Part shown: positions 3,037 through 63,441 of the stretch, piece by piece | How the letters are laid out: each line of letters starts with the position of its first letter | How positions within the stretch are numbered: the stretch's first letter is position 1 | Assembly: GCA_009780015.1 (NCBI GenBank) | Contig: WRAW01000001.1 | Location: forward strand, 14,012 to 78,011 | DNA length: 64,000 nucleotides | Direction: 5' to 3' | Source of the DNA: Defluviitaleaceae bacterium | GTDB taxonomy: Bacteria > Bacillota > Clostridia > Lachnospirales > WRAA01 | The notes under the pieces: generated by a model | What the model saw: only the letters and a program-made list of their open reading frames with translations | What the model was told of the DNA's origin: nothing | Database searches by the model: none | Position numbers and translations under genes: made by a program

Positions 3037-3854
3037 TGCCCGTTCAATATCCTGTTAGCGCCGGATTTAATACTAAACAGGCTCTAAGGGCACGGAAAGG
3101 ATTGCTAGAATTGTTCAAAAGAGTTATAATTAAGGTAAGCGGAGAACAGCTTGCGGGAGGAAGCGACGTCGAACACTTCGACGGCGCGTTCATCAAGCGT
3201 ATTGTAACGGAAGTAGACCACGTCAGCAGACGCGGCTGTGAAGCCGGACTGGTGGTGGGCGGCGGAAACATCTGGCGCGGCCGCGACGCCAACCCGTCAA
3301 TGGACAAAGCCAAGGCCCACCACATGGGTATGCTGGCCACGGTCATCAACGCGATATACCTTGCCGACCAGTTCCGCGTTTACGCGGATCGCAAGGCCGT
3401 CGTAATGACGCCGTTTGACGTAAACGGCTTCACGGCGCGCTACAGTCAGGAGTCCGCAAACGAATGTATGAGAAGGGGTACAATACCGATATTCGCCGGA
3501 GGCAGCGGACACCCGTTCCTCTCCACAGATACAATCACCGCCATACGGGCCTGTGAGCTGCGCGTCGACGCCGTTCTCTACGGAAAAACTGTGTCCTCGG
3601 TTTACGATAAAGACCCGCGACGTCACCGCGACGCCCGCCGCCTCCGGTCGGTGTCCTACGAAACCGTACTGCGCGACAGCCTCGACGTGGCCGATATCGC
3701 GGCCCTTAGCATCACGCACGGCGCGAACCTGGCGTCGGTAGTCTTTGGCATAGCCATCGAGGGTTCAATACTGACAGCGTGTGAAGGCGTGGAGGGCTTG
3801 TTCAGAATCGGCGGCACATACATCGCGGACGACGCTCAGGATGTGTATTACTAA
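3036..3854 (+). CDS. pyrH: UMP kinase
   Basis: KRVIIKVSGEQLAG, VVGGGNIWRG, HMGMLATVINA and FLSTDTITAIRA motifs, and position upstream of frr. The start is uncertain: the ATG at 3036 gives a 26-aa N-terminal extension, and the in-frame TTG at 3111 would give the usual M-FKRV start. Confidence 0.85.
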   Translation: MPVQYPVSAGFNTKQALRARKGLLELFKRVIIKVSGEQLAGGSDVEHFDGAFIKRIVTEVDHVSRRGCEAGLVVGGGNIWRGRDANPSMDKAKAHHMGMLATVINAIYLADQFRVYADRKAVVMTPFDVNGFTARYSQESANECMRRGTIPIFAGGSGHPFLSTDTITAIRACELRVDAVLYGKTVSSVYDKDPRRHRDARRLRSVSYETVLRDSLDVADIAALSITHGANLASVVFGIAIEGSILTACEGVEGLFRIGGTYIADDAQDVYY

Positions 3855-3923
3855 TGCCTGCAGGCCTGCTTATGTGATAAATTATCGGTAGATTCGGAGG
3901 AGATTTATCTGGCAAAGTCAATT

Positions 3924-4142
3924 TTGGGTTACAACACTGCCGCGAAAATGGGAAAAGCCGCCGCAATGAAGTACTGCCAGGAATGGCAGGCCGAAATAAC
4001 AAAAACAGGGGTAACGCTTGCTACCGACTATACGGGCAAAAAAATCGATAAAGCCACATATAACTATAGGAGGGAGGCTCTGAACAAGCAGACGAAGGAT
4101 CTGAACGAATGTATCGCGTCTATTAATCGGCAGTTTGGATAG
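3924..4142 (+). CDS. small hypothetical protein (72 aa) between pyrH and frr
   Basis: ORF track only; no family recognised. The strong SD GGAGGAG (3896-3902) is 21 nt from the TTG at 3924 but 6 nt from an in-frame CTG at 3909. Confidence 0.3.
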   Translation: MGYNTAAKMGKAAAMKYCQEWQAEITKTGVTLATDYTGKKIDKATYNYRREALNKQTKDLNECIASINRQFG

Positions 4143-6349: not shown

Positions 6350-7666
6350 ATGAAAAATATTGTGATACTTGGATCAACCGGTTCGATAGGGACTCAGGCG
6401 CTGGAGGTTGTTGACAGCCTTGGGGCGGAAGCCGGAATTTCGGCGCTTACCGCTAATAGCAGCGCAGACTTGCTCTACGATCAAATTGTGAAGTACAAAC
6501 CCAAGCTGGCCGTAGTTATGAATGCCGGGGCATATGACGAGCTTAGGAACAAGCTGCGCGCCGCCGGAATCGGCGTAAAGCTGGCGCACGGCATGGACGG
6601 GCTGCTTGAAGCGGCCTCCATGGACTGCGCCGACGTCTGCGTAAACGCGCTGGTGGGAAGCGTCGGACTGCTGCCGACCCTTGCGGCAATCGACGCCGGA
6701 ACCGACGTGGCGCTGGCAAACAAAGAAACCATCGTCACCGCCGGGGAGATTGTGATGGGTCGCGCACGCGCACGCGGCGTAAACATCGTGCCAATCGACA
6801 GCGAACATTCGGCAATATTCCAATGCCTGGCCGGAAATTCGGGCAACAGGATACACAGGATACTGCTTACGGCTTCAGGCGGGCCATTCCGAGGCATGAG
6901 TCCCGAACAGCTCAAATCCGTAACTATCGAGGACGCGCTTGCCCACCCGAATTGGGTAATGGGACGCAAGATAACGATTGACTCGGCGACTCTCATGAAC
7001 AAAGGTTTGGAAGTGATCGAAGCTCGATGGCTCTTCGACGTAGACCCCTCGCAGATTGAGGTCGTCGTTCACCCACAAAGCGTCATACACTCGATGGTCG
7101 AGTTTGAAGACGGTGCGATAATGGCGCAACTTGGCGAAAGTGATATGCGCGTCAGCATTGCTTACGCATTAACATACCCTCGCCGCGCGCGCTCCGATTT
7201 TAAGCGTCTGGATATATTCAGCCGCAGCCCTCTGACCTTCGAGCCGCCAGATACAACAGCTTTCCCATGCCTGGCTTATGCTTACGACGCGCTGAGAGCC
7301 GGCGGCACTGCGCCGGCCGTCCTTAACTCCGCCAACGAAGCCGCCGTTGAACTCTTTCTTAGCGGCAAAATTTCATTCACGGATATACCACGGCTTATAA
7401 ACGAGGCTGTTTCATCATATAATGTAAGGCGCGATGCTAAAAACCTGTATTCAATACCCGGAATGTTGGATTGGCGAGACGATTTTTCGCCAATTGAGGA
7501 AGTGATGACGCCGCGTACCAGTAGGGTACGCAAGGAAGAACTGACGATGAGTGGCGGAAAATCGACCGCCAAGACAGCGTTTCGGGTATTGAATGCAGGT
7601 TCTCATATCGACGAAATCTTACGGGCCGACGCCTGGGGAAGAAACTTTGTACACGAAAAGGGTTGA
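6350..7666 (+). CDS. dxr: 1-deoxy-D-xylulose-5-phosphate reductoisomerase carrying a 52-codon in-frame repeat insertion near the C-terminus
   Basis: ILGSTGSIGTQAL, ANKETIV, DSEHSAIFQC and HPNWVMGRKITIDSATLMNKGLEVIEA motifs. At 438 aa it is about 50 aa longer than usual. The extra segment coincides with repeat copy D (7444..7599). Confidence 0.95.
   Translation: MKNIVILGSTGSIGTQALEVVDSLGAEAGISALTANSSADLLYDQIVKYKPKLAVVMNAGAYDELRNKLRAAGIGVKLAHGMDGLLEAASMDCADVCVNALVGSVGLLPTLAAIDAGTDVALANKETIVTAGEIVMGRARARGVNIVPIDSEHSAIFQCLAGNSGNRIHRILLTASGGPFRGMSPEQLKSVTIEDALAHPNWVMGRKITIDSATLMNKGLEVIEARWLFDVDPSQIEVVVHPQSVIHSMVEFEDGAIMAQLGESDMRVSIAYALTYPRRARSDFKRLDIFSRSPLTFEPPDTTAFPCLAYAYDALRAGGTAPAVLNSANEAAVELFLSGKISFTDIPRLINEAVSSYNVRRDAKNLYSIPGMLDWRDDFSPIEEVMTPRTSRVRKEELTMSGGKSTAKTAFRVLNAGSHIDEILRADAWGRNFVHEKG
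7444..7599 (-). repeat. family-1 nested palindromic structured repeat, copy D (short variant) inside the dxr CDS
   Basis: Arms cctgtattcaatacccg (7444-7460) and cgggtattgaatgcagg (7583-7599) are complementary. The interior (ttggcgagacgatttttcgccaatt, gcgtaccagtagggtacgcaag, ctgacgatgagtggcggaaaatcg) aligns to the other copies. Length is 156 nt, a multiple of 3, with no stop in the dxr frame. Confidence 0.85.
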
Positions 7667-15933: not shown

Positions 15934-16512
15934 ATGAGCATTAAGGAACGGGCAAAACAACTTAAAACGGATATCCCAGCCGTATTTTTCGCCCTGAAGC
16001 AGCAAGAAACGCCGCTACTTGCAAAATTATTAGCAGTGGTTGTGGTAGCGTATGCTCTTTCGCCGATTGACTTAATTCCAAACTTTATTCCCGTACTGGG
16101 GCTGCTGGACGATGTTATAATTTTGCCATGGCTTGTCGCGATTATTGTAAAGATGATCCCGCCTGACGTCATGGCACGATGCCGGGAGGAAGCCGCCGGG
16201 CTGTGGGCTGAAGGAAAGCCCAAAAAGTGGTACTATGCCCTGCCGATAATCGTGATTTGGCTTTTAGAACCAGCGGTCAATAACGCTCAACGCCGTCTAG
16301 AAGGTCGAACTCCACCCCACGAAGCCAGAAGCGGGCTTCGTGGGGGCCCCGGTTTTCCGCCACTCGTCGTCAGCGGCTCCTTGCGTACCGCTATGGGTAC
16401 GCGGCGTCGCCGCTTCCTAGATTGGCGGAAAATCGCCCTTCTAGCCAGCATTTCGGTTATTGACCGCTGGTTCTTAATTACTTTTGTCACGGCAAGAGCA
16501 ATTTGGTGGTAA
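15934..16512 (+). CDS. DUF1232/YkvA-family membrane protein whose 3' end runs into repeat copy B
   Basis: AYALSPIDLIPNFIPVLGLLDDVIILP is the DUF1232 core. After ...PIIVIWLL the ORF continues for about 80 codons through the repeat (16268..16472) to a stop at 16512. Confidence 0.6.
   Translation: MSIKERAKQLKTDIPAVFFALKQQETPLLAKLLAVVVVAYALSPIDLIPNFIPVLGLLDDVIILPWLVAIIVKMIPPDVMARCREEAAGLWAEGKPKKWYYALPIIVIWLLEPAVNNAQRRLEGRTPPHEARSGLRGGPGFPPLVVSGSLRTAMGTRRRRFLDWRKIALLASISVIDRWFLITFVTARAIWW
16268..16472 (+). repeat. family-1 nested palindromic structured repeat, copy B
   Basis: There is a perfect 17-bp outer stem, aaccagcggtcaataac / gttattgaccgctggtt. Nested inside are ctagaagg/ccttctag, ggttttccgcca/tggcggaaaatc, agcggc/gccgct and gcgtacc/gggtacgc. 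A side hairpin is ccccacgaagcc/ggcttcgtgggg. Confidence 0.9.
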
Positions 16513-25897: not shown

Positions 25898-28800
25898 TTG
25901 GAACTTTTTCTCAGCATACACATTAATGAGGTGATGAAATTGGATCATGATGCTAATCAGCTACCTATTGAAAACCGGCTTAGAGAAGCCGAGGCAAGAT
26001 TACGTGAGGCGGAGGAACTGAACGAAATATTCCTTAACTCACTGCCTCTTATAATGAATATATGGGATGAGAATTATAAACTTATATCTACCAGTCAGCA
26101 AGCGGTGGAGCTGTTCGGGCTTTCCAATCAGGAACTGTATATTGAAAGATTCTTTGAGCTTTCTCCCGAGTATCAGCCATGTGGTGAACGTTCGCAGGAA
26201 AAAGCCTTGTACTATGTTAAGCAAGCGTTTCGTGAAGGCCGTGTGAAGTTCGAGTGGATGCATCAAAACTTATATGGGGAAGAACTGCCCGCAGAAATCG
26301 TCCTTGTACGCTTTGCGCGTTATGGCAAATACTTTGTTGCGGCGTACATCTTTGATTTGCGTACTATTAAAAAAGTTATTGAGAATGAGCACGAAGCCAA
26401 TGAAATAAACAGAATATTCATTGACACGTCACCTTTTGCAATGGGTATGCGGGATGAAAATTACAATCCCATATACTGCAACAGTCAATTGCTGGAATTG
26501 TTTGGACTTTCAAGCTATGATGAATATCGTAAGCGCTTCTTTGAGCTTTGCCCCGAACGCCAGCCATGTGGAACCCCTTCGGATCAAAAAGCCCTTGAGC
26601 ATATGAAAATTGCCATGGAAAAAGGTCGCCACCGTTTCGAGTTCGTGCACTATACGGCGGACGGCAAGCTGCTGCCCACAGATATTACGCTGATACGTAT
26701 CAAGCGTCAGGGCAAGAATATGCTTGCGGGATATATTATCGATTTACGCCCTCTGAGGCAAGCGGAAGAGGAAAGCCGGATTCTCTTTGATTCCTGCCCT
26801 ATGTTCATAGAAGTCTGGGACGATGAGTTTAATTTAATTGGATGCAGCCAGAAGGTTGTAGACTTCTTCGGCCTTGCCAATAAGGAAGAGTATATAAGCC
26901 GGTACGGCGAACTTTCACCAAAGTACCAGCCATGCGGCACACTATCGGTCGAAAAGGCCGTAATCCTGGCACGGAAAACCTTTGAAGAGGGTTATGTCCG
27001 CGACGAGTGGGTACACATAGATCAAATTACCGGCGAATTGTTTCCCGTAGAAATAACCATGGTACGGATTAGGCGCGGCGGCAGAGACGTCGCTGTAGGA
27101 TACAATCATGATCTGCGCCCCATTAAGGACGTCCTGGCAAAAATGCGTGAAGCAAATTCAAAGGCTCGTGAAGCGGAAGAACTGAACAAGTTGATACTTG
27201 ACGCCAGCCCCATGTGTATCGAGATGTGGGACGACCGGCAAAATATGATTTATTGTAACAATAAAGCCTTGAACGCAGCTAATGTCAATAGTTTTGAGGA
27301 TTACAGGGATCGGTTTGCGGAACTTATGATTCCCTGCCGGACGGACGGAACACCCTCTGAAAACAAGCTGTCCGATTTGCTGGACGAAGCGGCGCGGGAG
27401 GGATCCGCACAGTTTGAATGGACCCATAGGGACAAAGATGGCGCTCAGGTAACTTACGAAACTCACTTAGCCCGCATTACGCGTAACGGCCGAAATGAGA
27501 TAGTAGGCTATAGCCACGACATCAGCGAAATTAAAAGAGCGATAGCCGAGATACGCGAAGCCGACGAACGTACTGCGCTTATGTTTGACGCCACTCCCCT
27601 CTCCTGTATTATGGCAAAGCGGGTCACCACTGAAAACGGCAGCATAAGGTTTGCCGCCGTCGACTGCAATCAAGCCGCGGTTGATTTGTTTGACTTTTCC
27701 GGCAAAGAGGAAACCATAGCCCGGTTTCTTGATATTTTTCTGAAACCATCGGAAGATGAATCGATTTTAGACATGGCTTTTGAGGACGCGGCAATTGCGT
27801 TTGATAATGGTTTTCACCAATTTGAGTTTACACACAGGAATGTACACGGTGAGTATATCCCATGTAAAATCACCATGGTACGGGTAAATTATAAGGGCGA
27901 ACCTATGCTGGCCTGCTATCAGCATGATTTACGCCAGATCAAGGCGGCTATGTCAAAAGAGCGTGAAAGCTTTGAGCTTACACAAATAATTCTTGACTCC
28001 GCGCCCTTTATAATCAATATTTGGGACGACAATTATAACATTGTAAGTACAAACAAACGAGCCTTTGAACTGTACGGGTTTTCAGAACAAGATAAATACA
28101 TTAATGATTTTTTTAGTTTTTCGCCTGAGTACCAGCCTTGCGGCACGTATTCAAGAGAAAAAGGGATTAATTATCTTAAAGAAGCTTATCAATCAGGCCG
28201 CGCGCAATTCGAATGGGTACACCAATCGCTGGACGGCAAGCTGTTCCCCACGGAAATCACCCTTGTGCGCTCTAAGCACAAGGACGCTACGATTCTTCTT
28301 GAATACACAACCGATTTACGCAGAGTTAAAGCGGCAGAAGACCTTACGCGAAAATTGCTTGACAACGCGCCGATGTTTATGAAATTCTGGGACGCGAAAG
28401 GTAATTTATTGGATTGTAACAAAAGATTTCTGGATATTTTCAAGATAAAGAACAAGGCCGAATTTACAAAACGATTCTATGAATTCTCAGCGGCATATCA
28501 GCCTTGCGGCACGTCGCCGGAGGAAAAGAACATCGCGCTGATTAATTATGTCATACAGCAAGGCAGTTACAGCGCCGAGTGGACATTTGTCCTACCGAGC
28601 GGGGAGGAACTGCCGGTGAACGCCACCTGGGTGCATATTGTGCATAACGGCGAATCAATGATCTTAGTATACAGCCATGATTTACGCCCAATTAAAGCGG
28701 CAATAAAAAGGGAACGGGAATTGGAAACGAAATTGCGCGAACAGGAAATGAACAGACGCATCGAGCTTATGTTTGACGCGGCGCCCCTTATAATTACGTA

Positions 28801-30913
28801 CTGGGATAAAAGTCATCAAGCCATTGACTGCAATCAGACCGCTCTTGACTTTTACGGATATTCCAATAAAAAGGAATATATGGGGGATATAGTTAATATT
28901 TCCACCGAATTTCAACCTGACGGATCTCCTTCGGTAGAAAGCCAGAAAAACCACTTGGATACAATTTTTGAGACAGGCTCCGACAGCTTTGAATATACCG
29001 GAAGAAAATCAAACGGTGATGTTGTTTTCTTGCAAGTGGAAGGCATACGCATAAAATATGACGATGAGTTTGTTGCGATCACGTATTCCAAAGACATCAC
29101 TCAACTGAGAGAGCTGCAGAGGGAACAGCAGCGCATTGAAATAGCCGAGGAAAGCAACAGAGCAAAGAGCAGATTTCTGGCAAGAATGAGCCATGAAATA
29201 CGTACGCCGATTACGGCGGTTTTGGGCATTTCAGAAATACAATTGCGGAATACGGCTCTGTCTCCTATTATTGAGGAATCTTTTGCAAAAATTTATAATT
29301 CGGCTAACATACTTCTTGACATTGTAAATGATATTTTAGACCTCTCCAAGATAGAGGCCGGTAAAATGTCCTTGCTGTGCGAAGAATATGAAACCTCAAG
29401 TTTGATTGTCGATGCCGTGCAGTGTCATATCGTGAACCTTGGATACAAAAATTTAGAGTTTCATGTACATGTGGACGAGAATCTTCCAAAACTGCTTGCA
29501 GGTGATTCTCTTCGCATTAAACAGGTTATAAACAATATATTGTCAAATGCTTTCAAATATACAAAGTCAGGTTCGGTGGAGCTATCCATGCACTGCCAAG
29601 AATATGCTTCTGAAGAAAGTTACGTGACGCTTGTGATTTCTATCCGCGACACAGGTCTGGGCATGACCCCGGATCAGATTGACAGATTATACAGCGACTA
29701 CACACGTTTCCATGAACACGAGGTACGTTCCGCAATAGGCACAGGCTTGGGTATGCCCATTGTTTATAATTTGCTGAAATTGATGGATGCGGACATCGAT
29801 ATAGAAAGCGAAGTAGGCGTAGGTACAAACGTAATAGTCCGTATACCTCAAAAAATAGTCGGCTCCGAAGTCTTGGGAAGGAAGTTGGCTGACAGCCTGC
29901 AAAACTTTGAAGTGAGCGCACAATCTGTTGAGAAAAAGTTTAAATTTGTGCCGGAACCGATGCCTTATGGGCGGGTGCTTGTGGTAGACGACGTGAGCGC
30001 GAACTTGTATGTAGCCCATGGATTGCTCTCGTTTTATAGCCTAAACATCGAAACTTGCGATAACGGATATGACGCGATAGAAAAAATTAAACAAGGCAGG
30101 GTATATGATATTGTATTTATGGATCAGATGATGCCCGGTATAAACGGTACTGAAACAATGCGCCTCATGCGTGATATTGGCTATACCGAGCCTATAGTTG
30201 CGCTTACGGCCAATGCCCTGATAGGCCAGGCGGAGGAATTTATAAGAAACGGTTTTGACGGCTTTATTTCAAAGCCTATTCAAACAGTGCACTTGAACAC
30301 AATTTTAACCAAGCATATACGGGACAAACAGCCGCCCGAGGTGCTTGAAGCGGCTATAAGCGGCAGCTTAGAGCATTCCGAAGGCATTGACAATTATCAA
30401 AACAATGCTGATGTGGTGGAAAAATTACGGTCGGATTTTGCCGCCAATCAGAAAAACGCGTTCCTGGAAATAAGTCAGGCCATAACGTCGGGAGATATTA
30501 AAACCGCTCACCGCCTGGCTCATACACTTAAAGGTTTAGCCGGGCTAGTACATGAATCAGACTTGGCGCAAGCCGCCGCGCATGTGGAATATATTCTGGA
30601 AAGCGGCGAAATACCGTCAAATGATAAGCTGTTTGCTTTAAAAAATGAACTGGCGCGCGTGCTCAATAATATTGGCAAGCCGGAAGCTATGATACTTTCC
30701 GGTAAGCTGGTTTTAGATGTGGATAAGGCTATATCGCTGCTCGATAGGTTAAAGCCCTTACTGGAACACCGAAAAGCTGAGTGTCTGAACTTGCTTGAGG
30801 AGCTTCGCACAATACCGGAAACGGCCATATTAGTCAGACAAATTGAGAAATTTGACTTTGCGTCGGCTCTAAAAAGTATGAATACATTAAGGGCTATACT
30901 GGAAGAACAATAA
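25898..30913 (+). CDS. giant hybrid sensor histidine kinase with 8 tandem PAS-like modules, HisKA-HATPase-REC-Hpt
   Basis: There are eight about 140-aa repeats ending in ..DLRxIK. The H-box is FLARMSHEIRTPITAVLG. The HATPase region is IRDTGLGM..GTGLGMPIV. The REC is VLVVDD..IVFMDQMMP and the Hpt is HTLKGLAGL. The start is uncertain (25898 TTG or ATG at 25934). Confidence 0.9.
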   Translation: MELFLSIHINEVMKLDHDANQLPIENRLREAEARLREAEELNEIFLNSLPLIMNIWDENYKLISTSQQAVELFGLSNQELYIERFFELSPEYQPCGERSQEKALYYVKQAFREGRVKFEWMHQNLYGEELPAEIVLVRFARYGKYFVAAYIFDLRTIKKVIENEHEANEINRIFIDTSPFAMGMRDENYNPIYCNSQLLELFGLSSYDEYRKRFFELCPERQPCGTPSDQKALEHMKIAMEKGRHRFEFVHYTADGKLLPTDITLIRIKRQGKNMLAGYIIDLRPLRQAEEESRILFDSCPMFIEVWDDEFNLIGCSQKVVDFFGLANKEEYISRYGELSPKYQPCGTLSVEKAVILARKTFEEGYVRDEWVHIDQITGELFPVEITMVRIRRGGRDVAVGYNHDLRPIKDVLAKMREANSKAREAEELNKLILDASPMCIEMWDDRQNMIYCNNKALNAANVNSFEDYRDRFAELMIPCRTDGTPSENKLSDLLDEAAREGSAQFEWTHRDKDGAQVTYETHLARITRNGRNEIVGYSHDISEIKRAIAEIREADERTALMFDATPLSCIMAKRVTTENGSIRFAAVDCNQAAVDLFDFSGKEETIARFLDIFLKPSEDESILDMAFEDAAIAFDNGFHQFEFTHRNVHGEYIPCKITMVRVNYKGEPMLACYQHDLRQIKAAMSKERESFELTQIILDSAPFIINIWDDNYNIVSTNKRAFELYGFSEQDKYINDFFSFSPEYQPCGTYSREKGINYLKEAYQSGRAQFEWVHQSLDGKLFPTEITLVRSKHKDATILLEYTTDLRRVKAAEDLTRKLLDNAPMFMKFWDAKGNLLDCNKRFLDIFKIKNKAEFTKRFYEFSAAYQPCGTSPEEKNIALINYVIQQGSYSAEWTFVLPSGEELPVNATWVHIVHNGESMILVYSHDLRPIKAAIKRERELETKLREQEMNRRIELMFDAAPLIITYWDKSHQAIDCNQTALDFYGYSNKKEYMGDIVNISTEFQPDGSPSVESQKNHLDTIFETGSDSFEYTGRKSNGDVVFLQVEGIRIKYDDEFVAITYSKDITQLRELQREQQRIEIAEESNRAKSRFLARMSHEIRTPITAVLGISEIQLRNTALSPIIEESFAKIYNSANILLDIVNDILDLSKIEAGKMSLLCEEYETSSLIVDAVQCHIVNLGYKNLEFHVHVDENLPKLLAGDSLRIKQVINNILSNAFKYTKSGSVELSMHCQEYASEESYVTLVISIRDTGLGMTPDQIDRLYSDYTRFHEHEVRSAIGTGLGMPIVYNLLKLMDADIDIESEVGVGTNVIVRIPQKIVGSEVLGRKLADSLQNFEVSAQSVEKKFKFVPEPMPYGRVLVVDDVSANLYVAHGLLSFYSLNIETCDNGYDAIEKIKQGRVYDIVFMDQMMPGINGTETMRLMRDIGYTEPIVALTANALIGQAEEFIRNGFDGFISKPIQTVHLNTILTKHIRDKQPPEVLEAAISGSLEHSEGIDNYQNNADVVEKLRSDFAANQKNAFLEISQAITSGDIKTAHRLAHTLKGLAGLVHESDLAQAAAHVEYILESGEIPSNDKLFALKNELARVLNNIGKPEAMILSGKLVLDVDKAISLLDRLKPLLEHRKAECLNLLEELRTIPETAILVRQIEKFDFASALKSMNTLRAILEEQ

Positions 30914-31008: not shown

Positions 31009-31134
31009 ATAGTGAAACAACTTAATTCAGGCCAATATTATCTCGGCGCTAAAGCGCCTCCTTTGTGGAACGTCGGCGGCAGTAGGCCGACGCTTCCAGA
31101 AAATATTGGTTCGCTTATTAAGTTGTTTCACTAT
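31009..31134 (+). repeat. family-2 structured repeat, copy 1 (complete)
   Basis: The 18-bp outer arms are atagtgaaacaacttaat / attaagttgtttcactat. Inside are ccaatatt/aatattgg and the hairpins ggcgc-taaa-gcgcc and cgtcggc-ggcagtag-gccgacg. A second copy is at 63255..63368. Confidence 0.85.
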
Positions 31135-31159
31135 AAAAAGAAATGTACGGAGGTAGCTT

Positions 31160-31723: not shown

Positions 31724-31745
31724 CAGCCCATATGAATTTTATAGC

Positions 31746-31796
31746 CAATAGATATTCAACAGTCCAAGTAAATTTTGGACTGTTGAATATCTATTG
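31746..31796. terminator. bidirectional 22-bp perfect hairpin between convergent genes
   Basis: caatagatattcaacagtccaa-gtaaatt-ttggactgttgaatatctattg. Confidence 0.7.
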
Positions 31797-31806
31797 ACTA
31801 TGTCGC

Positions 31807-33210
31807 TTAACTTCTGTTTAGAATATCCCTTGCTATGAGCACCCCCGAAGCGCCGGCTTGCGCCAGGCCCCGCGTTATTCCCGCACCGTCGCCGCCGCAG
31901 TACAGGCTGTCAATCTTTGTCATTAAGCTGCCTGAGAGCTCCGGCCTGGATGAGTAGAACTTTGCCTCCACGCCATACAGCAGGGTGTGGTCGGATTCAA
32001 GGCCGGGTGTTACATTGTCCAGGGCCTGTATCATTTCGATAACGCTTTTCATTGTTGTATACGGCAACGCGAGCCCAAGGTCGCCGGGTTCGGCTTCAGT
32101 TTGTGTCGGCTTAATGAAGTTCTCGCCTATTCTCTTCTTTGTTGAACGTCGGCCGCGCTTTATGTCGCCATAGCGTTGCAAAATTACGCTTCCGTTTGAA
32201 AGCTCGTTCGCCCTCTTGCAGATTTCGCGTGCGTATTCGTTGGGCCTGTTGAATGGCTCCGTAAACTTGTGAGAAACCAGGATGGCGAAGTTTGTGTTTT
32301 CGGAGCCTTTTCCGGGGTCTTTGTAGGCATGGCCGTTTGCGCACACGATTCCCGAGTGATTCTCCACGACTACATGCCCTGACGGGTTTGAACAAAATGT
32401 GCGCGCAAGAGTCCCGACAGACGTGCTGTAGACCAGCTTGGCTTCATAGAGGTGCTTATTTATGTCGTGCATTATAACGTCGGACGTTTCAACGCGTACT
32501 CCTATATCAACTTGATTATTTACAAGGCTTAGCCCATGGCGATCCGCCAAGTCCGTAAACCAGGACGATCCGTCCCTTCCCGGGACAATTACGACGCTCT
32601 TCGCCCGCAGCTCTGAACCATCGCGCAAAACTACTCCGCAAACCTTGCCGTTTTCGACCAGAATATCTTCCGCTTCCGTACCGAAGCGCATTTCGATTCG
32701 CTCAGAGAGATGCCTGTTTATAGATTTTAGTATCTCAAGATTTGCCTCAGTACCCAGATGCCTTACTTGAGAACGCAAAAGCTTTAGACCTGCGCCGGAC
32801 GCGCGCTGTTCGATCTTACGGACTTCTTCGGTGATTGGGTCTGTTATTTCTTCCGTGGCGCCGTGTTTGAGGTTAATCGAGTCTACATAGCAGATAAGCT
32901 CTCGCAGATAATTGTCCGAAATATAGTCGCCAAGCCAGCCTCCAAAGAGGGTTGTTATGTTAAACTTACCGTCTGAATACGCTCCCGCCCCGCCGAACCC
33001 GTTCGTGATAGAGCACGCCGGCATACAGCTCTGCTTGCCTTCGTTAATTGGGCAGGCATGAATCTTACCCGCCATTATCGGGCATGTTCTTTTGTCTATA
33101 TCCAGACCCTTGTCAACAAGCAGTACGGACAGCCCGGGCGACTTGTCCATAAGTTCATAACAGGCAAATATACCTGCCGGCCCCGACCCAATTACTATCA
33201 CATCATACAT
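31807..33210 (-). CDS. FAD-dependent oxidoreductase (COG2509-like, uncharacterised)
   Basis: MYDVIVIGSGPAGIFACYEL is a dinucleotide-binding fold, and the C-terminus has GGDGAGITRGLAQA. 467 aa. Confidence 0.7.
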   Translation of the reverse strand: MYDVIVIGSGPAGIFACYELMDKSPGLSVLLVDKGLDIDKRTCPIMAGKIHACPINEGKQSCMPACSITNGFGGAGAYSDGKFNITTLFGGWLGDYISDNYLRELICYVDSINLKHGATEEITDPITEEVRKIEQRASGAGLKLLRSQVRHLGTEANLEILKSINRHLSERIEMRFGTEAEDILVENGKVCGVVLRDGSELRAKSVVIVPGRDGSSWFTDLADRHGLSLVNNQVDIGVRVETSDVIMHDINKHLYEAKLVYSTSVGTLARTFCSNPSGHVVVENHSGIVCANGHAYKDPGKGSENTNFAILVSHKFTEPFNRPNEYAREICKRANELSNGSVILQRYGDIKRGRRSTKKRIGENFIKPTQTEAEPGDLGLALPYTTMKSVIEMIQALDNVTPGLESDHTLLYGVEAKFYSSRPELSGSLMTKIDSLYCGGDGAGITRGLAQAGASGVLIARDILNRS

Positions 33211-39610: not shown

Positions 39611-40615
39611 TTATAGAACAAAGCCATACTTGACAGGATCCCTGTCGTCAATAATAAACGTGTTAAAGCCTGTTATGTAGGCCGACCCGGTTATTTCGGG
39701 AGTAACAGCGTCAAAGTCTCCTGCTTTTGTAATGCCAAGAATCTTGCCCTTGAAAAGAGTGCCTAATATGCTTTCATATACAAAGGGTTCTCCTTCTTTC
39801 AGCTTGCCCTTGGCATACAAGGCTGCCATTTTTGCGCTTGTGCCGGTTCCGCACGGAGAGCGGTCAACCTGGCCGTCGCCAAAAATAACCACGTTCTTAT
39901 AATCGGCGTCCGGGTGGGTAGGCTCGCCATAAATCTCCACAAGATCGCATGTCTTGATGTGGCTAAGATATGGGTGACGCATTTCCACCTGTTGGTTTAC
40001 GCAGTCTCTGATTTTCAGAGCCAGTTGCATAAGTTCGGTCACGTTCTTCGGCAAAATATCAATTCCCAAGTTTTTTGCGTCTACAAGAGCAAAGAACGAA
40101 CCTCCGAAGGATATGTCCAAGGTAAGCTTGCCAAGCCCGGGAACGTCTACCGTGACGCCCTCCTTGTAAAGAAACGACGGGACATTGACAATCGAAACCT
40201 CTTCCACTTTTTCTCCCGACACTTTTACTTGAGCCTTAATAAGTCCGGCGGGGGTATCCATAATAACATCGGTAACAGGTTCTTTCGCTTTGACAATACC
40301 TGTTTCGACAGCAACGGTAGCCGCTCCTATCGACCCGTGGCCACACATATTAAGATATCCACCTCCGTCCATAAAAATTATGCCAAAATCTGCTTCTTGA
40401 CTGCATGGCTGGGTTATGATGGAACCAAACATGTCACGGTGGCCTCTTGGTTCGTTCATAAGGGCGGTTCTGAGATAGTCCATTTCGTCAATAAGATACT
40501 GCTTTTTTTCGGCCATGGTGTTTCCTTTGATATTGGGGATTCCTCCCGTAATAATTCTTGTCGGTTCCCCCATTGTATGGCTATCGATGGCATTAATTAC
40601 CCTCGAGATTTTCAA
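39611..40615 (-). CDS. prdF: proline racemase
   Basis: MKISRVINAIDSHTMGEPTRI, NMCGHGSIG and DRSPCGTGTSA (the two catalytic Cys contexts). The TTG start overlaps the prdE stop. Confidence 0.95.
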   Translation of the reverse strand: MKISRVINAIDSHTMGEPTRIITGGIPNIKGNTMAEKKQYLIDEMDYLRTALMNEPRGHRDMFGSIITQPCSQEADFGIIFMDGGGYLNMCGHGSIGAATVAVETGIVKAKEPVTDVIMDTPAGLIKAQVKVSGEKVEEVSIVNVPSFLYKEGVTVDVPGLGKLTLDISFGGSFFALVDAKNLGIDILPKNVTELMQLALKIRDCVNQQVEMRHPYLSHIKTCDLVEIYGEPTHPDADYKNVVIFGDGQVDRSPCGTGTSAKMAALYAKGKLKEGEPFVYESILGTLFKGKILGITKAGDFDAVTPEITGSAYITGFNTFIIDDRDPVKYGFVL

Positions 40616-41085
40616 CTGCTTTCACCCTTCCGTATTTTTAGCTTTAAAAAGGCCAAAGCTTTTCTCGCGTCCAATTGCGTAATATTGTTTTCACCTACGA
40701 CTTGGGTCTCTATCCCTTCCGCGGATTTATTAAAATCTATGATGCAATCCATGTACTTATTCGTAACAACAAATTGAGCAATCGTACCAATAAAGTTAAG
40801 GCCTACTATCGGAATGCCTCTCTTGCCTACCTCTTCGATGGTGTTCGCAAAATCAATATCATTATTGCCCCACCCGTCACAAGATATTATTGCGCCGTCC
40901 ACACGCATGGCTTCAAGCCACGCGGCAACTCTGCCCCCGACAAAGTGCTTCATTCTATTGTCCTGGGGAGTGCCTACGACTATAATGCCGACAAAGTCGA
41001 TATCACTGTCGTTCGACAACACGCTGACAAGAGGATCCCTGAAATGGTGAAGCGATGTTTCCTTTGTTGACGGACCAAGTCCCAT
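40612..41085 (-). CDS. prdE: proline reductase cluster protein PrdE (PrdA C-terminal homologue)
   Basis: 157 aa. It parallels the PrdA C-terminus: HHFRDPLV.. vs HYFREPLV.., DFVGIIVVGTPQ vs DFVGVIFVGSPQ, GWGNNDIDFA vs GFGNNHIDFA. Confidence 0.85.
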   Translation of the reverse strand: MGLGPSTKETSLHHFRDPLVSVLSNDSDIDFVGIIVVGTPQDNRMKHFVGGRVAAWLEAMRVDGAIISCDGWGNNDIDFANTIEEVGKRGIPIVGLNFIGTIAQFVVTNKYMDCIIDFNKSAEGIETQVVGENNITQLDARKALAFLKLKIRKGESS

Positions 41086-41140
41086 TCAACCATCACCTCC
41101 TTAATATGATACCTCCTTTGCGTGACCTTATTCTTGAAGT

Positions 41141-41899
41141 TTAATCCATGGCTCTTATGGCGCCGTCGCGGTACTCGTTCGGGGACAGTATTAGCGGGAC
41201 GTTCTGCACGTCTATGATCGATATGCCGCCGTCGTAACCGCTGGGCTCGTCCGGGAAAAGGAGGTTGTCATACATTGCGCCCTGCCCGGACACTTGCTTG
41301 ATAAGAGCGACCTTCTTCTTGCCTGTGCCCGCCCTGTCGAAAAACTCGTGGATTTCGCCGGCTTCACCGGCCTCGTTAGTCTTCATCGCCTCTCTTATGG
41401 TCTGCATGAAGCGGTCACAAGACCGGAACGCCGCCGTGGGAAGCGCTCTGTTGAAAGGCTGCCCGCCTTTCAACAGGACGTCCACATGTATGATAAAATC
41501 TGTTTCCGCCGGTGTGCCGGCCCTACCGAAAATTATGTGTTCCGCCAGTATGCCTTCGGAAGAGCCGAACTCGTGCATTTGCCTGCCGTCTTGGTCACAC
41601 CCTGTCAGCACGACCACAGCGCCCGTAAGGGTGTGGGTTATGCCTTCGCCCAGCCTGCCCAAAACCTTGGTGGATACCGGGATGATATCCATTATCGTAT
41701 TCGTCTCGACCCTGGTTTCTCCGGGCTTTATGACAGAAACGGTCATATCTATGACCAGTTCCTCTCCGGCGATGATTTCGGACAGTATTTCCCTGGAAAT
41801 ATTCAAGGTACTCCCTTTGACGGACGCCTTCTTCGCAAACTCTACGTTTGTGATATGGAAGGCTCTGATAACCAAGCGCCGCAGCACATCGTTCATCAT
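41141..41899 (-). CDS. prdD: proline reductase cluster protein PrdD (PrdA N-terminal-half homologue)
   Basis: It parallels the PrdA middle region: HEFGSSEG vs GEFGSSEG, QGAMYDNLLFP vs QGAMHDNLILP. The ATG at 41899 follows AAGGGTG. Confidence 0.85.
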   Translation of the reverse strand: MMNDVLRRLVIRAFHITNVEFAKKASVKGSTLNISREILSEIIAGEELVIDMTVSVIKPGETRVETNTIMDIIPVSTKVLGRLGEGITHTLTGAVVVLTGCDQDGRQMHEFGSSEGILAEHIIFGRAGTPAETDFIIHVDVLLKGGQPFNRALPTAAFRSCDRFMQTIREAMKTNEAGEAGEIHEFFDRAGTGKKKVALIKQVSGQGAMYDNLLFPDEPSGYDGGISIIDVQNVPLILSPNEYRDGAIRAMD

Positions 41900-41929
41900 C
41901 AAACACACCCTTGGAGTTTCCGCGCGAAC

Positions 41930-50438: not shown

Positions 50439-50521
50439 AACACGCGCTCGAATTGCATACAGGCAGATTGAATCTTGTTCATAAGGCCCCCTTGTGAATT
50501 TCGTGACAAATAGTAAAGTGA

Positions 50522-50713
50522 TTTTAAACAACGAAACGCGAACAAATTCGTGCTTTCATGCTGTCTAAAACTTTCACAATGTAAAAGTTGGTACGGCTTA
50601 AATGGTTTTAGACAACGAAACGCGAACAAATTCGTGCTTTCATGTTGTCTAAAACTTTCACAATGTAAAAGTTGGTGCGGTCTAAGTGGTTTTAGACAAC
50701 GAAACGCGAACAA
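50522..50713. repeat. 2.3 tandem copies of an 84-bp unit, each with a 47-nt hairpin
   Basis: Units start at 50522, 50606 and 50690 (partial). Unit core: tttagacaac-gaaa-cgcgaa-caaa-ttcgtg-c-tttc-at-gttgtctaaa. Units 1 and 2 differ at only a handful of positions. Confidence 0.9.
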
Positions 50714-54126: not shown

Positions 54127-55052
54127 GAGAAACCCGGCTGCACGTACAAGACCTCATATACCCCATGTTTATAGTGGAAGGCGAAGGCATACGGCGTGAA
54201 ATACCGTCTCTTCCCGATGTCTGTCAGTTCTCGCCGGACATGCTTGAGGAAGAAATCCGCGAAATCTGCTCCCTTGGACTGCGGCACGTCCTTCTCTTCG
54301 GAGCCCCTCACGCCAGCCGCAAGGACGAAGCCGGCACACCGGCCTTTAGCGAATACGGCGTGGTGCAGCAAGCCGTACGCGAGATCAAGAAGATCGCGCC
54401 CGATATCTGCGTGACGACCGACGTATGCATGTGCGGATATACAAACCATGGACATTGCGGACTCCTCGACGAGCAAGGCTGTGTGGACAACGACCTCACC
54501 CTTGGTCATCTGGCCGCGATTGCGCTGAGCCACGCCCAAGCCGGCGCCGACATCATAGCGCCGTCGGACATGATGGACGGCCGCGTCGCCCGCATACGCG
54601 ACGCCCTGGACAGCGGCGGCTACGACCATATTCCGATAATGGTGTACAGCGCCAAGTATGCCTCGAGCTTCTACGGCCCGTTCAGGCACGCTGCCAATTC
54701 CGCGCCGCAAACCGGAGACCGCAAAGGCTACCAGATGGACTTCGCCAACGCGAACGAAGCGCTGATAGAATGCGCCCTGGACGTACAGGAAGGCGCCGAC
54801 ATTCTTATGGTCAAGCCCGCTATGGCCTATCTTGACATAATAAGCCGCGTGAAGCAGCACTGCGGTCTGCCTCTGGCAGCCTACAGCGTCAGCGGCGAGT
54901 ACGCGATGTTAAAGTCTGCCATACAGCACGGCATCCTGTCGGAAGCCGCAGTCTACGAGACGATAATCGCAATCAAGCGCGCCGGAGCCGACATAATAAT
55001 CACATACTTCGCGAAAGACCTGGCAAAAATGCTTAGAGCCTGCGATCAATAA
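54072..55052 (+). CDS. hemB: porphobilinogen synthase
   Basis: RPRRLRRTDAIRSLVRETRL, DVCMCGYTNHGHCG (Zn Cys cluster), PSDMMDGR, YASSFYGPFR and MVKPA. The TTG start follows AGGAGG. The last codons and stop lie in repeat copy C. Confidence 0.93.
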   Translation: MSRRPRRLRRTDAIRSLVRETRLHVQDLIYPMFIVEGEGIRREIPSLPDVCQFSPDMLEEEIREICSLGLRHVLLFGAPHASRKDEAGTPAFSEYGVVQQAVREIKKIAPDICVTTDVCMCGYTNHGHCGLLDEQGCVDNDLTLGHLAAIALSHAQAGADIIAPSDMMDGRVARIRDALDSGGYDHIPIMVYSAKYASSFYGPFRHAANSAPQTGDRKGYQMDFANANEALIECALDVQEGADILMVKPAMAYLDIISRVKQHCGLPLAAYSVSGEYAMLKSAIQHGILSEAAVYETIIAIKRAGADIIITYFAKDLAKMLRACDQ

Positions 55053-55242
55053 TGCTCAACGCCGCCTGGAAGGCCGAGCTCCACACAACGAAGCCAAAAT
55101 CACGCTTCGTGGGAGCCCCGGTTTTCCGCCATTCATCGTTAGCAACTCCTTGTATAACGCTACGGGTATGCGGCGGAGACACTTTCTAAATTGGCGAAAA
55201 ATCGCCGCTTCTAGCTGATATTTCGGTTATTGACCACAGGTT
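55038..55242 (+). repeat. family-1 nested palindromic structured repeat, copy C
   Basis: It aligns along its whole length with copy B (gctcaacgccg, cgaagcc..gcttcgtggg, ccccggttttccgcca, attggcgaaaaatcgcc, cttctag, atttcggttattgacc). The left arm gcctgcgatcaataat overlaps the hemB 3' end. Confidence 0.85.
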
Positions 55243-55257
55243 CCGAAAGGACAACAC

Positions 55258-62278: not shown

Positions 62279-63271
62279 ATGCCAAAGTGTGACGCGGTGT
62301 TTCAGGGCGGCGGCGTAAAAGGAACCGGCTTTGCCGGGGCGGTGATGATACTGGAAGAGGCAGGCTACAAGTTCGAGAATATTGTGGGCACGTCTGCCGG
62401 CGCGATTGTTGCGGCATTACTGTCGGCCGGATACAGCGGAGCGGAAATACGTGACGAGCTGATGCGGGTCGATTACAAAAAGTTTTTGGACGCGTCGTGG
62501 CTGGTTAGGACTTTTTATACTCCTAAGCTGGTGAACCTTGCCTTCAAATGGGGAATATACAGGACGGACGCTTTCGAGGCGTGGCTTGGCGGATTGCTGG
62601 AAAGAAAGGGAAAGATCAAATTTCGCGACATACGCACGAATTTGGAGGATGAACGGTATAGATACGGATTCCAAGCGATAGCCTCAGACATAACCAGCAA
62701 AACGATGCTGCTGCTGCCGGGCGACCTCAAAAAGTTTGGAATAGACCCGGACGAATTTCCAATCGCAAAGGCTGTGCGTATGAGTATGTGCATACCATTC
62801 TATTTCGAGCCGTACAGGTTGACAGGGTCAGACGGCAAAGAACACGTAATACTGGACGGAGGGCTGCTCAGCAACTATCCCGTGTGGGTGCTCGACGACG
62901 GCAGCCACAACCCGGCAGTGCCGACATTCGGCTTCAAGTTTGGCAGCCACAACCAAAACCCGCGCAAAAAGGATCATGGAAATACGCTAATCGGCTTTAC
63001 TAAGTCAATCGTTTCAACCCTTTTGAGCGCTTGGGACAACCGGCACATTTCGGAATCAAGCGGCGACCTTGCGCGCACGATACTTATTTCCACGGCAATA
63101 ACGTCTCAAGGCAAGCAGAAGGTGGTCGGTACCACTGAATTCGACATATCAGACGACGAGAAGAGACAACTGCTCGAAAACGGCATGACTGCGGCGCGCA
63201 AGTTTCTGGCGGGTTGGAATTTTGAAAAATGGAAGAAGGAGTTTCGCGCAAATACAGTGGAACAACTTTAA
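62279..63271 (+). CDS. patatin-like phospholipase
   Basis: FQGGGVKGTGFAG (oxyanion loop), GTSAGA (GxSxG) and LDGGLLSNYP (the catalytic Asp context). Confidence 0.85.
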   Translation: MPKCDAVFQGGGVKGTGFAGAVMILEEAGYKFENIVGTSAGAIVAALLSAGYSGAEIRDELMRVDYKKFLDASWLVRTFYTPKLVNLAFKWGIYRTDAFEAWLGGLLERKGKIKFRDIRTNLEDERYRYGFQAIASDITSKTMLLLPGDLKKFGIDPDEFPIAKAVRMSMCIPFYFEPYRLTGSDGKEHVILDGGLLSNYPVWVLDDGSHNPAVPTFGFKFGSHNQNPRKKDHGNTLIGFTKSIVSTLLSAWDNRHISESSGDLARTILISTAITSQGKQKVVGTTEFDISDDEKRQLLENGMTAARKFLAGWNFEKWKKEFRANTVEQL

Positions 63272-63368
63272 TTTGCCCGGCGCTAAAGCGCCTACTTTGT
63301 GGAACGTCGGCGGCAGTAAGCCGACGCTTGCAGAAAATATTGGTTCGTTTCTCAAGTTGTTTCACTAT
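63255..63368 (+). repeat. family-2 structured repeat, copy 2 (internally deleted)
   Basis: acagtggaacaactttaat...ggcgctaaagcgcc.tttgtggaacgtcggcggcagtaagccgacgctt.cagaaaatattggttcg...aagttgtttcactat aligns with 31009..31134. The left arm covers the last patatin codons and the TAA stop. The left ccaatatt segment is missing. Confidence 0.8.
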
Positions 63369-63441
63369 AGGATTGAAAGTTAGCGCGGACTAGAGTATAC
63401 TAAGGGCAGATGTTTATGTCGATAGTACGAAGGAGAATGTT

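Follow-up and report, generated by a model that had tools for sequence, protein, structure and literature searches.

Target choice is narrow in one branch of the IS5 family of insertion sequences (ISs). [quoted passage not shown] A three-nucleotide insertion site is common to IS1031-group elements, and IS1237, which was placed in the IS427 group and has features shared with the IS1031 group, made a TAA duplication (PMC2516522). [quoted passage not shown] Here, we analyzed four nested-hairpin repeats in a 64,000-nt stretch of contig WRAW01000001.1 (the whole stretch is called the window below) from an uncultured termite-gut Defluviitaleaceae bacterium. We conclude that the four repeats are very probably copies of a non-autonomous DNA transposon, a MITE, and infer that its mobilization is of the IS5/IS1031 type. 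The assignment rests on terminal inverted repeats (TIRs), target site duplications (TSDs) of the form TNA, the lack of coding capacity, the dispersed copies, and empty sites. The MITE family is not described before, but the kind of element is already known. A first-pass annotation of the letters had called this nested-hairpin repeat unnamed and previously unclassified; the first was borne out by the absence of any Rfam match and of any description of the family in the literature, while the second no longer applies, since the family can be placed as a MITE by its TIRs, 3-bp TNA TSDs, precise empty sites, and IS1031-like ends.

The basic element is 156-168 nt long, starts with GAACCTGTATTCAATAAC, and finishes with the reverse complement of GAACCTGTATTCAATAAC. 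Its TIRs are 16-18 nt and near-perfect, reaching ~30 nt in some copies, and 97.8% of the cells in the helix that they form (helix 1) are paired. Family members span 93 to 343 nt and have no protein of their own in any frame, only read-through peptide of a host gene. We found an identical 3-bp TNA on both sides of 15 elements: TTA/TTA in nine (window copies A and B and, in related loci designated by L numbers, L004, L015, L022, L026, L027, L031, and L040), TAA/TAA in five (L009, L013, L017, L030, and L043), and TGA/TGA in one (L041). The flanks differ at one base or have decayed in A2, C, L028/L039, and L038. The smallest member, at L024:1969-2061, is a 93-nt mini-element made up of the TIRs and one short hairpin between perfect TTA/TTA duplications, and judging from its sequence, the ends alone seem sufficient for insertion. 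The right end of this mini-element abuts the stop codon of the right-hand gene, and 85 nt separate its left end from the end of an upstream ZIP-family transporter gene.

Segments 1548-1829, 7442-7601, 16264-16474, and 55033-55245 of the window were linked by direct reading, multiple alignment, and a repeat finder, and the inverted-repeat ends refined their limits to 1552-1825 (copy A), 7441-7602 (A2), 16267-16473 (B), and 55036-55243 (C). The four copies thus exist where they had been annotated, with each limit off by only 1-5 nt. Orientation divides the four: B and C read along the + strand, A and A2 along the - strand. When a six-copy profile was run on the four, it scored 125-177 bits in one orientation versus 14-38 bits in the other; the elements are thus polar, imperfect palindromes. 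An nhmmer/profile search revealed no fifth copy in the window. Copy A2 (162 nt) is the basic element without optional modules and is flanked by TAA (7438-7440) and TCA (7603-7605). Copy B (207 nt) has TIRs at 16267-16284 and 16456-16473, a side-hairpin module at 16312-16346, a core at 16350-16435 with its apical hairpin at 16383-16402, and a TTA duplication at 16264-16266 and 16474-16476. Copy A (274 nt) has the variant ends GAGRCTGTTTAATACC; two side hairpins, one complete and the other truncated, lie within it together with a second optional module, GCCTACGCTGGCGCTTCGGATGCT...AGCATCC, and it is flanked by TTA at 1549-1551 and 1826-1828. Copy C (208 nt) is the most decayed, with TTA at 55033-55035 on the left and CGA on the right.

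Two of the four copies lie in frame inside genes, a feature missed in the annotation, which had placed them at or in gene 3' ends. In dxr (6350-7666, + strand), the gene for 1-deoxy-D-xylulose 5-phosphate (DXP) reductoisomerase, A2 and its duplication are inserted between the last two helices, adding 165 nt, or 55 codons, in frame and without a stop. The resulting Dxr is 438 aa long compared to ~376-398 aa in relatives, and its eight nearest homologues (380-398 aa, 59-81% identity) lack the insert, aligning gap-free save for one ~53-residue block unique to the window protein; in solved Dxr structures, the alignment ends at the insert point. The closest relative, L046, has an empty site with a single TGA, ...AATGTAAGGCACTGTTT-TGA-TATTGACGGG..., and the occupied site in the window reads ...AATGTAAGGCGCGATGC-TAA-[162 nt]-TCA-TATCGACGAA.... 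An AlphaFold2 model of the window Dxr was of moderate quality (mean predicted local distance difference test score [pLDDT] of 69 from a nine-sequence alignment); helices 345-364 and 406-437 were kept, and residues 361-416 were unstructured, with pLDDT <50. The model is compatible with the insert being a tolerated surface loop. The window Dxr is identical to the protein of a metagenome-assembled 'Defluviitaleaceae bacterium', and the 438-aa form was present in ENA, Logan, and JGI assemblies, three occurrences that may be one sample and were not counted as independent.

The second case is ykvA (YkvA/DUF1232; 15934-16512, + strand), where copy B is an exact 70-codon in-frame insert. Together with its duplication, it adds 210 nt inside the last hydrophobic segment, giving a product of 192 aa. 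Homologues among the matches listed are 121-151 aa long (~122 aa), bar one two-domain protein of 292 aa, and none of the seven that were aligned has the insert. The empty site at L047, ...TGGGGGATT-TTA-ATTTACGTC..., holds a single TTA, and the occupied site reads ...TGGCTT-TTA-[207 nt]-TTA-ATTACTTTTGTC.... Copy B is read in element frame +0, which is stop-free in 8 of the 17 elements examined. Among 1.84 billion representative proteins, the copy B peptide had one match only, which was low in complexity and spurious, so in-frame use of that frame is not widespread. Read-through was limited to these two window insertions among ~26 copies, most of which are intergenic. Within a gene, an insertion would survive only if the element and its 3-nt duplication together make up whole codons and the frame read is stop-free; both dxr and ykvA fit. 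The 438-aa Dxr and the 192-aa YkvA are ordinary genes with a mobile insert rather than novel protein variants.

Of the four TNA triplets, two are stop codons (TAA and TGA), and the other two (TTA and TCA) are their complements. The tally of gene flanks covered 26 elements, and the pairing analysis below covered mainly 17 elements from the window and its relatives. In at least 6 of the 26 elements, the TSD is itself the stop codon of a flanking open reading frame (ORF; >=100 aa), and ~11 lie within 20 nt of a gene 3' end. By comparison, when intergenic sites and stop codons are taken together as the tolerable TNA sites of the window, stop codons account for only 8-9%. Copy A sits on the stop of a DUF4364 gene (944-1552), where the TA of the left TSD and the first G of the element form TAG, and it ends 13 nt before the ATG of the next gene. 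Copy C lies at the end of hemB, which now stops at a TAA within the TIR of the element (55050-55052). Reconstruction of a hemB empty site for copy C failed, since the right flank is CGA and removal would fuse hemB to the next gene; the right junction has probably decayed. Because an element that duplicates a stop codon restores it and spares the gene, copies gather at gene 3' ends and at tight operon junctions. The annotated placement at or in the 3' ends of genes was therefore right and holds for the wider family too. Selection against other insertions is enough to explain the stop pattern, and an extra target preference may contribute. These cases show that a TNA-targeting transposon can sit on stop codons without harming genes.

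The family extends beyond the window. A metagenome scan with a right-end pattern found 33 loci, all with termite-gut JGI contig names, and a profile search of related loci (the 33 metagenome loci and two further metagenome-assembled genomes [MAGs]) revealed ~60 element places. Numerous contigs terminate within a copy, as a frequent repeat would be expected to cause, and in termite-gut metagenomes this repeat is often where contigs break. Among species-representative genomes, a scan for the apical hairpin found copies L004, L007, and L009 in another Defluviitaleaceae MAG and a mosaic relative, L005, in a third; the MAG names fit a termite-gut MAG study (PMC7024585). L004 and L009 differ by a few bases only and occupy different loci. 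L004:809-1089 and L007:5042-5322 (WQSG01000005 and WQSG01000027 of the same MAG) hold the same element with flanks identical over 281 nt, which is either a duplicate or assembly redundancy.

The apical-hairpin scan also matched rumen and 'RS' MAGs (L006, L008, and L010-L012); these are different repeats, whose number agrees with the roughly nine chance matches estimated for the 19-base pattern. In MAGs RS_10_39 and RS_12_30 (L010:7447-7728, L011:19-300, and L012:3775-3980), which are unrelated, a different family has the same apical hairpin, TTGCGTACCACTAAGGGTACGC, within a GGTCAATT...AATTGAC stem and arranges its loops similarly, and the match is either chance or a sign of a distant relative of the core. 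In rumen Clostridia MAGs (L006:3552-3833; L008:2259-2540 and 3765-4046), clusters of GCGTACCC/GGGTACGC motifs directly follow the 3' end of a tRNA gene, and in one contig they do so at two tRNA copies; they resemble arm-type binding sites at an integration site.

The mobilizing partner is most likely, from the sequence of the ends and the target, an IS1031-type IS5-family transposase not yet located. Such a DDE transposase (IS5 family, IS1031 subgroup), encoded elsewhere in the genome, would bind both ends and insert the element at TNA, duplicating the triplet, and its own IS would be expected to have the ends GAACCTGT...ACAGGTTC with TNA flanks. The absence of a transposase from the window, as annotated, is consistent with a motif scan and with Pfam searches of 58 window ORFs, in which the check covered the 25 commonest of 77 families listed in one scan; the ORF map of the window leaves no gap big enough for an IS. 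Six-frame motif scans of the window and related loci found no IS5-type transposase signatures. A search of the same sequences for inverted GARCCTG ends 600-2500 bp apart gave one false positive, in the ZIP-transporter gene of L024, which led to the 93-nt mini-element.

Several observations weigh against assigning these repeats to an IS1031-type MITE. The link to IS1031 consists of eight identical terminal bases (11/17 overall) with one published IS, together with target specificity. An autonomous IS with matching ends was absent from the 64-kb window and from ~330 kb of related loci, blastn of one element against 72,556 plasmids gave only chance 31-nt matches, and a TIR scan of viral contigs gave no matches. 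Flanking triplets are non-identical in 4 of ~22 full copies. The window copies are 75-82% alike, so these insertions are old, and current activity in the source genome is at most a possibility. Finally, the metagenome pattern demanded one kind of right end, which biases the proportions of terminus types.

We found that the elements are predicted to fold far more stably than dinucleotide shuffles, with RNA z scores of -9.9 (B), -4.6 (C), -9.3 (A2), and -9.7 (A), and the opposite strand of B, folded with DNA parameters, had a z score of -12.1. RNAalifold on the 17 elements returned 44 pairs, 19 of them with compensatory changes. When a second stem was added by hand, the resulting 52-pair structure had 94.6% of its cells paired and double changes in 26 pairs, and none of 500 shuffles was as good; in a slid control in which partners were displaced by 1-3 columns, 31-44% of the cells paired and 3-5 pairs had double changes. 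The annotated stems are all present, namely the outer stem, CTAGAAGG/CCTTCTAG, GGTTTTCCGCCA/TGGCGGAAAATC, AGCGGC/GCCGCT, the apical GCGTACC/GGTACGC, and the optional side hairpin, and the covariation claimed across copies is real. The individual compensatory differences also stood, except that the outer stem of copy C is only partly compensated, with two C.A mismatches. Among the elements, the apical stem occurs as GCGTACC/GGTACGC, GCTTGCC/GGCAAGC, GCGCACG/CGTGCGC, and GCGAACC/GGTTCGC, and the inner 6-bp stem occurs as AGCGGC/GCCGCT, GTGTCC/GGACAC, and GAGCCT/AGGCTC. The non-Watson-Crick cells comprise 14 G.T, 31 A.C, and 16 others, and counted by pair, G.T and A.C are about equal. Since there is no wobble excess, both strands fold, and copies occur in both orientations, the constraint would seem to act on DNA, or on either strand, rather than on one RNA. 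The central annotated observation, nested pairing with compensatory changes, stands; the same three observations speak against a specific functional RNA.

The interior of the elements is modular. The side hairpin, CCACCCCAYRAAGCC-N-GCTTYRYGGGG, is present in 0-3 copies per element, with three in the 343-nt L040, and the second optional module has the form GGATGCT...AGCATCC. No side hairpin was found outside elements, and we therefore rejected it as an independent repeat. The core of ~85 nt, TTTTCCGCC-A-CTCGTCGTCAG-N4-CTCCTT-GCGTACC-loop-GGTACGC-GKCGTCG-N4-CTTCCTAG-ATTGGCGRAAAA, is a three-stem hairpin with two asymmetric internal loops in which a CGTC strand stands opposite a TCCT strand, almost invariant. 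Its conserved unpaired motifs are CGTCGTC, CTCCTTG, GCGKCGTC, and CTTCCTAG. This core occurs on at least five terminus types: GARCCTG-type ends plus GAGRCTGTTTAATACC (copy A), GAGCCTATCCAACAATAA (L026), and others, among them TGTTYCATCCGG with CTAG flanks (L033), GGTGTGTCGWCAATAG with CTAG flanks (L037 and L030), and a further type (L024 and L027). There are two target types, TNA for GARCCTG-type ends and CTAG for TGTTYCATCCGG-type and GGTGTGTCG-type ends. In an alignment of 18 cores with five terminus types, mean column identity was 77%, and the invariant columns lay in the unpaired motifs while the stems varied with compensation.

The most serious alternative keeps the MITE assignment and holds that the compensatory changes need no selection: intrastrand template switching at replication would correct imperfect palindromes, gene conversion would spread the variants, and the structure would be a by-product without a cis role. 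We regard this as a real but tentative possibility. The retained pairs are almost all of the Watson-Crick kind and G.T intermediates are few, and there are signs of exchange between copies: the two ends of L042:351-560 are of different types, the core of the CTAG-type L030 is near-identical to that of the TNA-type L027, and exchange by gene conversion accounts for this mosaicism. Set against L040, L026 and L038 seem from their sequences to have lost the stretch between two side hairpins, as recombination between repeated side-hairpin modules would produce. However, the two internal loops are non-complementary (~5-9 nt per side), form the best-conserved columns on every terminus type, and are never 'corrected' to a perfect palindrome while the adjacent stems vary, and the elements keep a clear polarity.

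These fixed, never-symmetrized loops suggest a cis role for the core, a part that the ordinary MITE model does not explain. It would then be a cis-acting module that aids spread and is read in its folded form by the transposase or a host protein, and gene conversion between copies would shuffle cores, optional hairpin modules, and ends. Carried further, the unit under selection would be the ~85-nt core itself, a portable cis cassette (a folded-DNA or RNA binding site) acquired by unrelated MITEs for spread or persistence; we consider this speculative and rather unlikely. To our knowledge, no described bacterial MITE behaves in this way, with a portable core across chassis. As a point against a functional core, the loops could also have stayed similar through recent shared descent together with gene conversion. 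If the core is functional, MITEs could swap a structured cis-module between different transposase systems. Interest in the family is raised by the in-frame dxr and ykvA insertions, by the parking on stop codons, and above all by the shared structured core.

An improbable alternative is that the repeats are a structured non-coding RNA or a cis-acting mRNA element, such as a 3' stabilizer, a terminator, or an RNase target, in which selection on the transcript would preserve the stems and dispersal would be secondary. The strong predicted folds, the many covarying pairs, and the conserved unpaired motifs would suit it, as would the placement at gene 3' ends and within operons, where transcription would run, and a mild excess of sense copies (15 versus 7 antisense, a tally that is not significant). 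Yet copies occur in both orientations and also inside coding sequence, G.T cells number 14 against 31 A.C with no G-U excess, the opposite strand folds equally well, and the TIRs, TSDs, and empty sites need a transposon anyway. As annotated, no Rfam family matched, neither at gathering scores nor, on the elements, at E<=1. The sole Rfam match was a chance one to mir-203 at 31735-31807, off the elements. Its source on both strands is a near-perfect palindrome at 31741-31801, with 27-nt arms that are 96% complementary, between two genes. Promoter and terminator scans, made around copies A and C only, found nothing above chance that involved a whole element; near A, the three terminator-like sites are themselves local hairpins, one of them outside the element, and there was no such site at C.

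A further reading, that these are REP/BIME-type repeats (including CGTC-tagged REPs) moved by a RAYT tyrosine transposase rather than a DDE-dependent MITE, is very improbable. It has in its favor a conserved CGTC next to hairpins, a mosaic, modular build that recalls BIMEs, and a downstream-of-gene preference as in REPs (PMC3733652), but a REP is a 20-40 bp single hairpin, free of TIR and TSD, with a GTAG or CGTC tag abutting an 8-9 bp stem, an A/T start, and a CCA tail, whereas here CGTC stands 12-15 nt from the apical stem GCGTACC in elements of 93-343 nt with long TIRs and 3-bp duplications. Pfam scans found no Y1 transposase gene in the window, and we rejected the CGTC-tagged REP after comparison with the family definition (length, TIR, TSD, and tag position). 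Equally hard to credit is a TA-duplicating MITE of the IS630/Tc1-mariner type, like Correia, in place of IS5/IS1031: the target does hold T and A, and the elements are small, hairpin-forming, and near genes as Correia elements are, but the middle base of the triplet can be A, T, or G, and 15 elements, TGA/TGA among them, repeat it identically on both sides, the empty sites hold one full TNA, and an IS1031-group IS has the same terminal 8 nt.

Other features of the window lie apart from the MITE family. At 50516-50713 (+ strand), an 84-nt unit is repeated ~3 times in tandem at 90-93% identity, with a hairpin GTTTTAGACAAC...GTTGTCTAAAAC in each, and a related unit stands beside a core-type element at L024:7246-7340, making this a second repeat family of the same organisms. 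We rejected a CRISPR array here because the units are near-identical throughout. A 99-nt direct repeat with 91% identity occupies 31037-31135 and 63271-63369, with a partial third copy at 32134-32156; it carries the small hairpins GGCGCTAAAGCGCC and CGTCGGCGGCAGTAGGCCGACG and is dispersed and intergenic. Two adjacent ORFs at 40612-41905 (- strand) match glycine/sarcosine/betaine reductase component B (profile positions 2-237 and 245-338), which looks like a single gene with an internal in-frame stop; that stop may be a UGA that encodes selenocysteine, as it does in GrdB. A 1670-aa ORF at 25898-30910 (+ strand) has several internal repeats ~750-1200 nt apart and encodes a large repetitive protein.

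Among known systems, the IS1031 subgroup, along with MITEs that derive from IS5-family elements, is the closest to the MITE described here. The first 8 nt of the ISLrh inverted repeat are the element end GAACCTGT, and a TNA target with a 3-bp direct repeat is common to both. The subgroup's ISs are ~850-950 nt long and encode a transposase, in contrast to elements of 93-343 nt without a transposase gene, whose interior is a nested hairpin unlike any IS coding sequence. Correia elements of Neisseria, ERIC/IRU elements, and other bacterial MITEs whose transcripts form hairpins over their whole length are likewise 100-300 nt long, with TIRs and a TSD, rod-like hairpins of very negative folding energy, and many copies near genes, often co-transcribed (PMC10969869), but they use a TA target rather than the 3-bp TNA, they have no sequence similarity to our elements, and here the stems covary around conserved loops and the same core stands on several ends. 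BOX elements of Streptococcus pneumoniae and BIMEs of enterobacteria are modular like the present elements, with their 0-3 side hairpins and second module, yet are without the TIR-plus-TSD signature shown here. RPEs are likewise short palindromic mobile repeats that lie in frame in genes, including housekeeping genes, and add peptide without breaking the frame (PMC10969869). Here, in-frame palindromic elements occur in dxr and ykvA only and have clear TIRs and TSDs, and the phylum of Rickettsia differs from that of this Bacillota gut anaerobe, so that homology is unlikely and the likeness is one of in-frame behavior. The Dxr insertion is thus a clear example, outside Rickettsia, of a palindromic element in frame within an enzyme of the methylerythritol phosphate (MEP) isoprenoid pathway.

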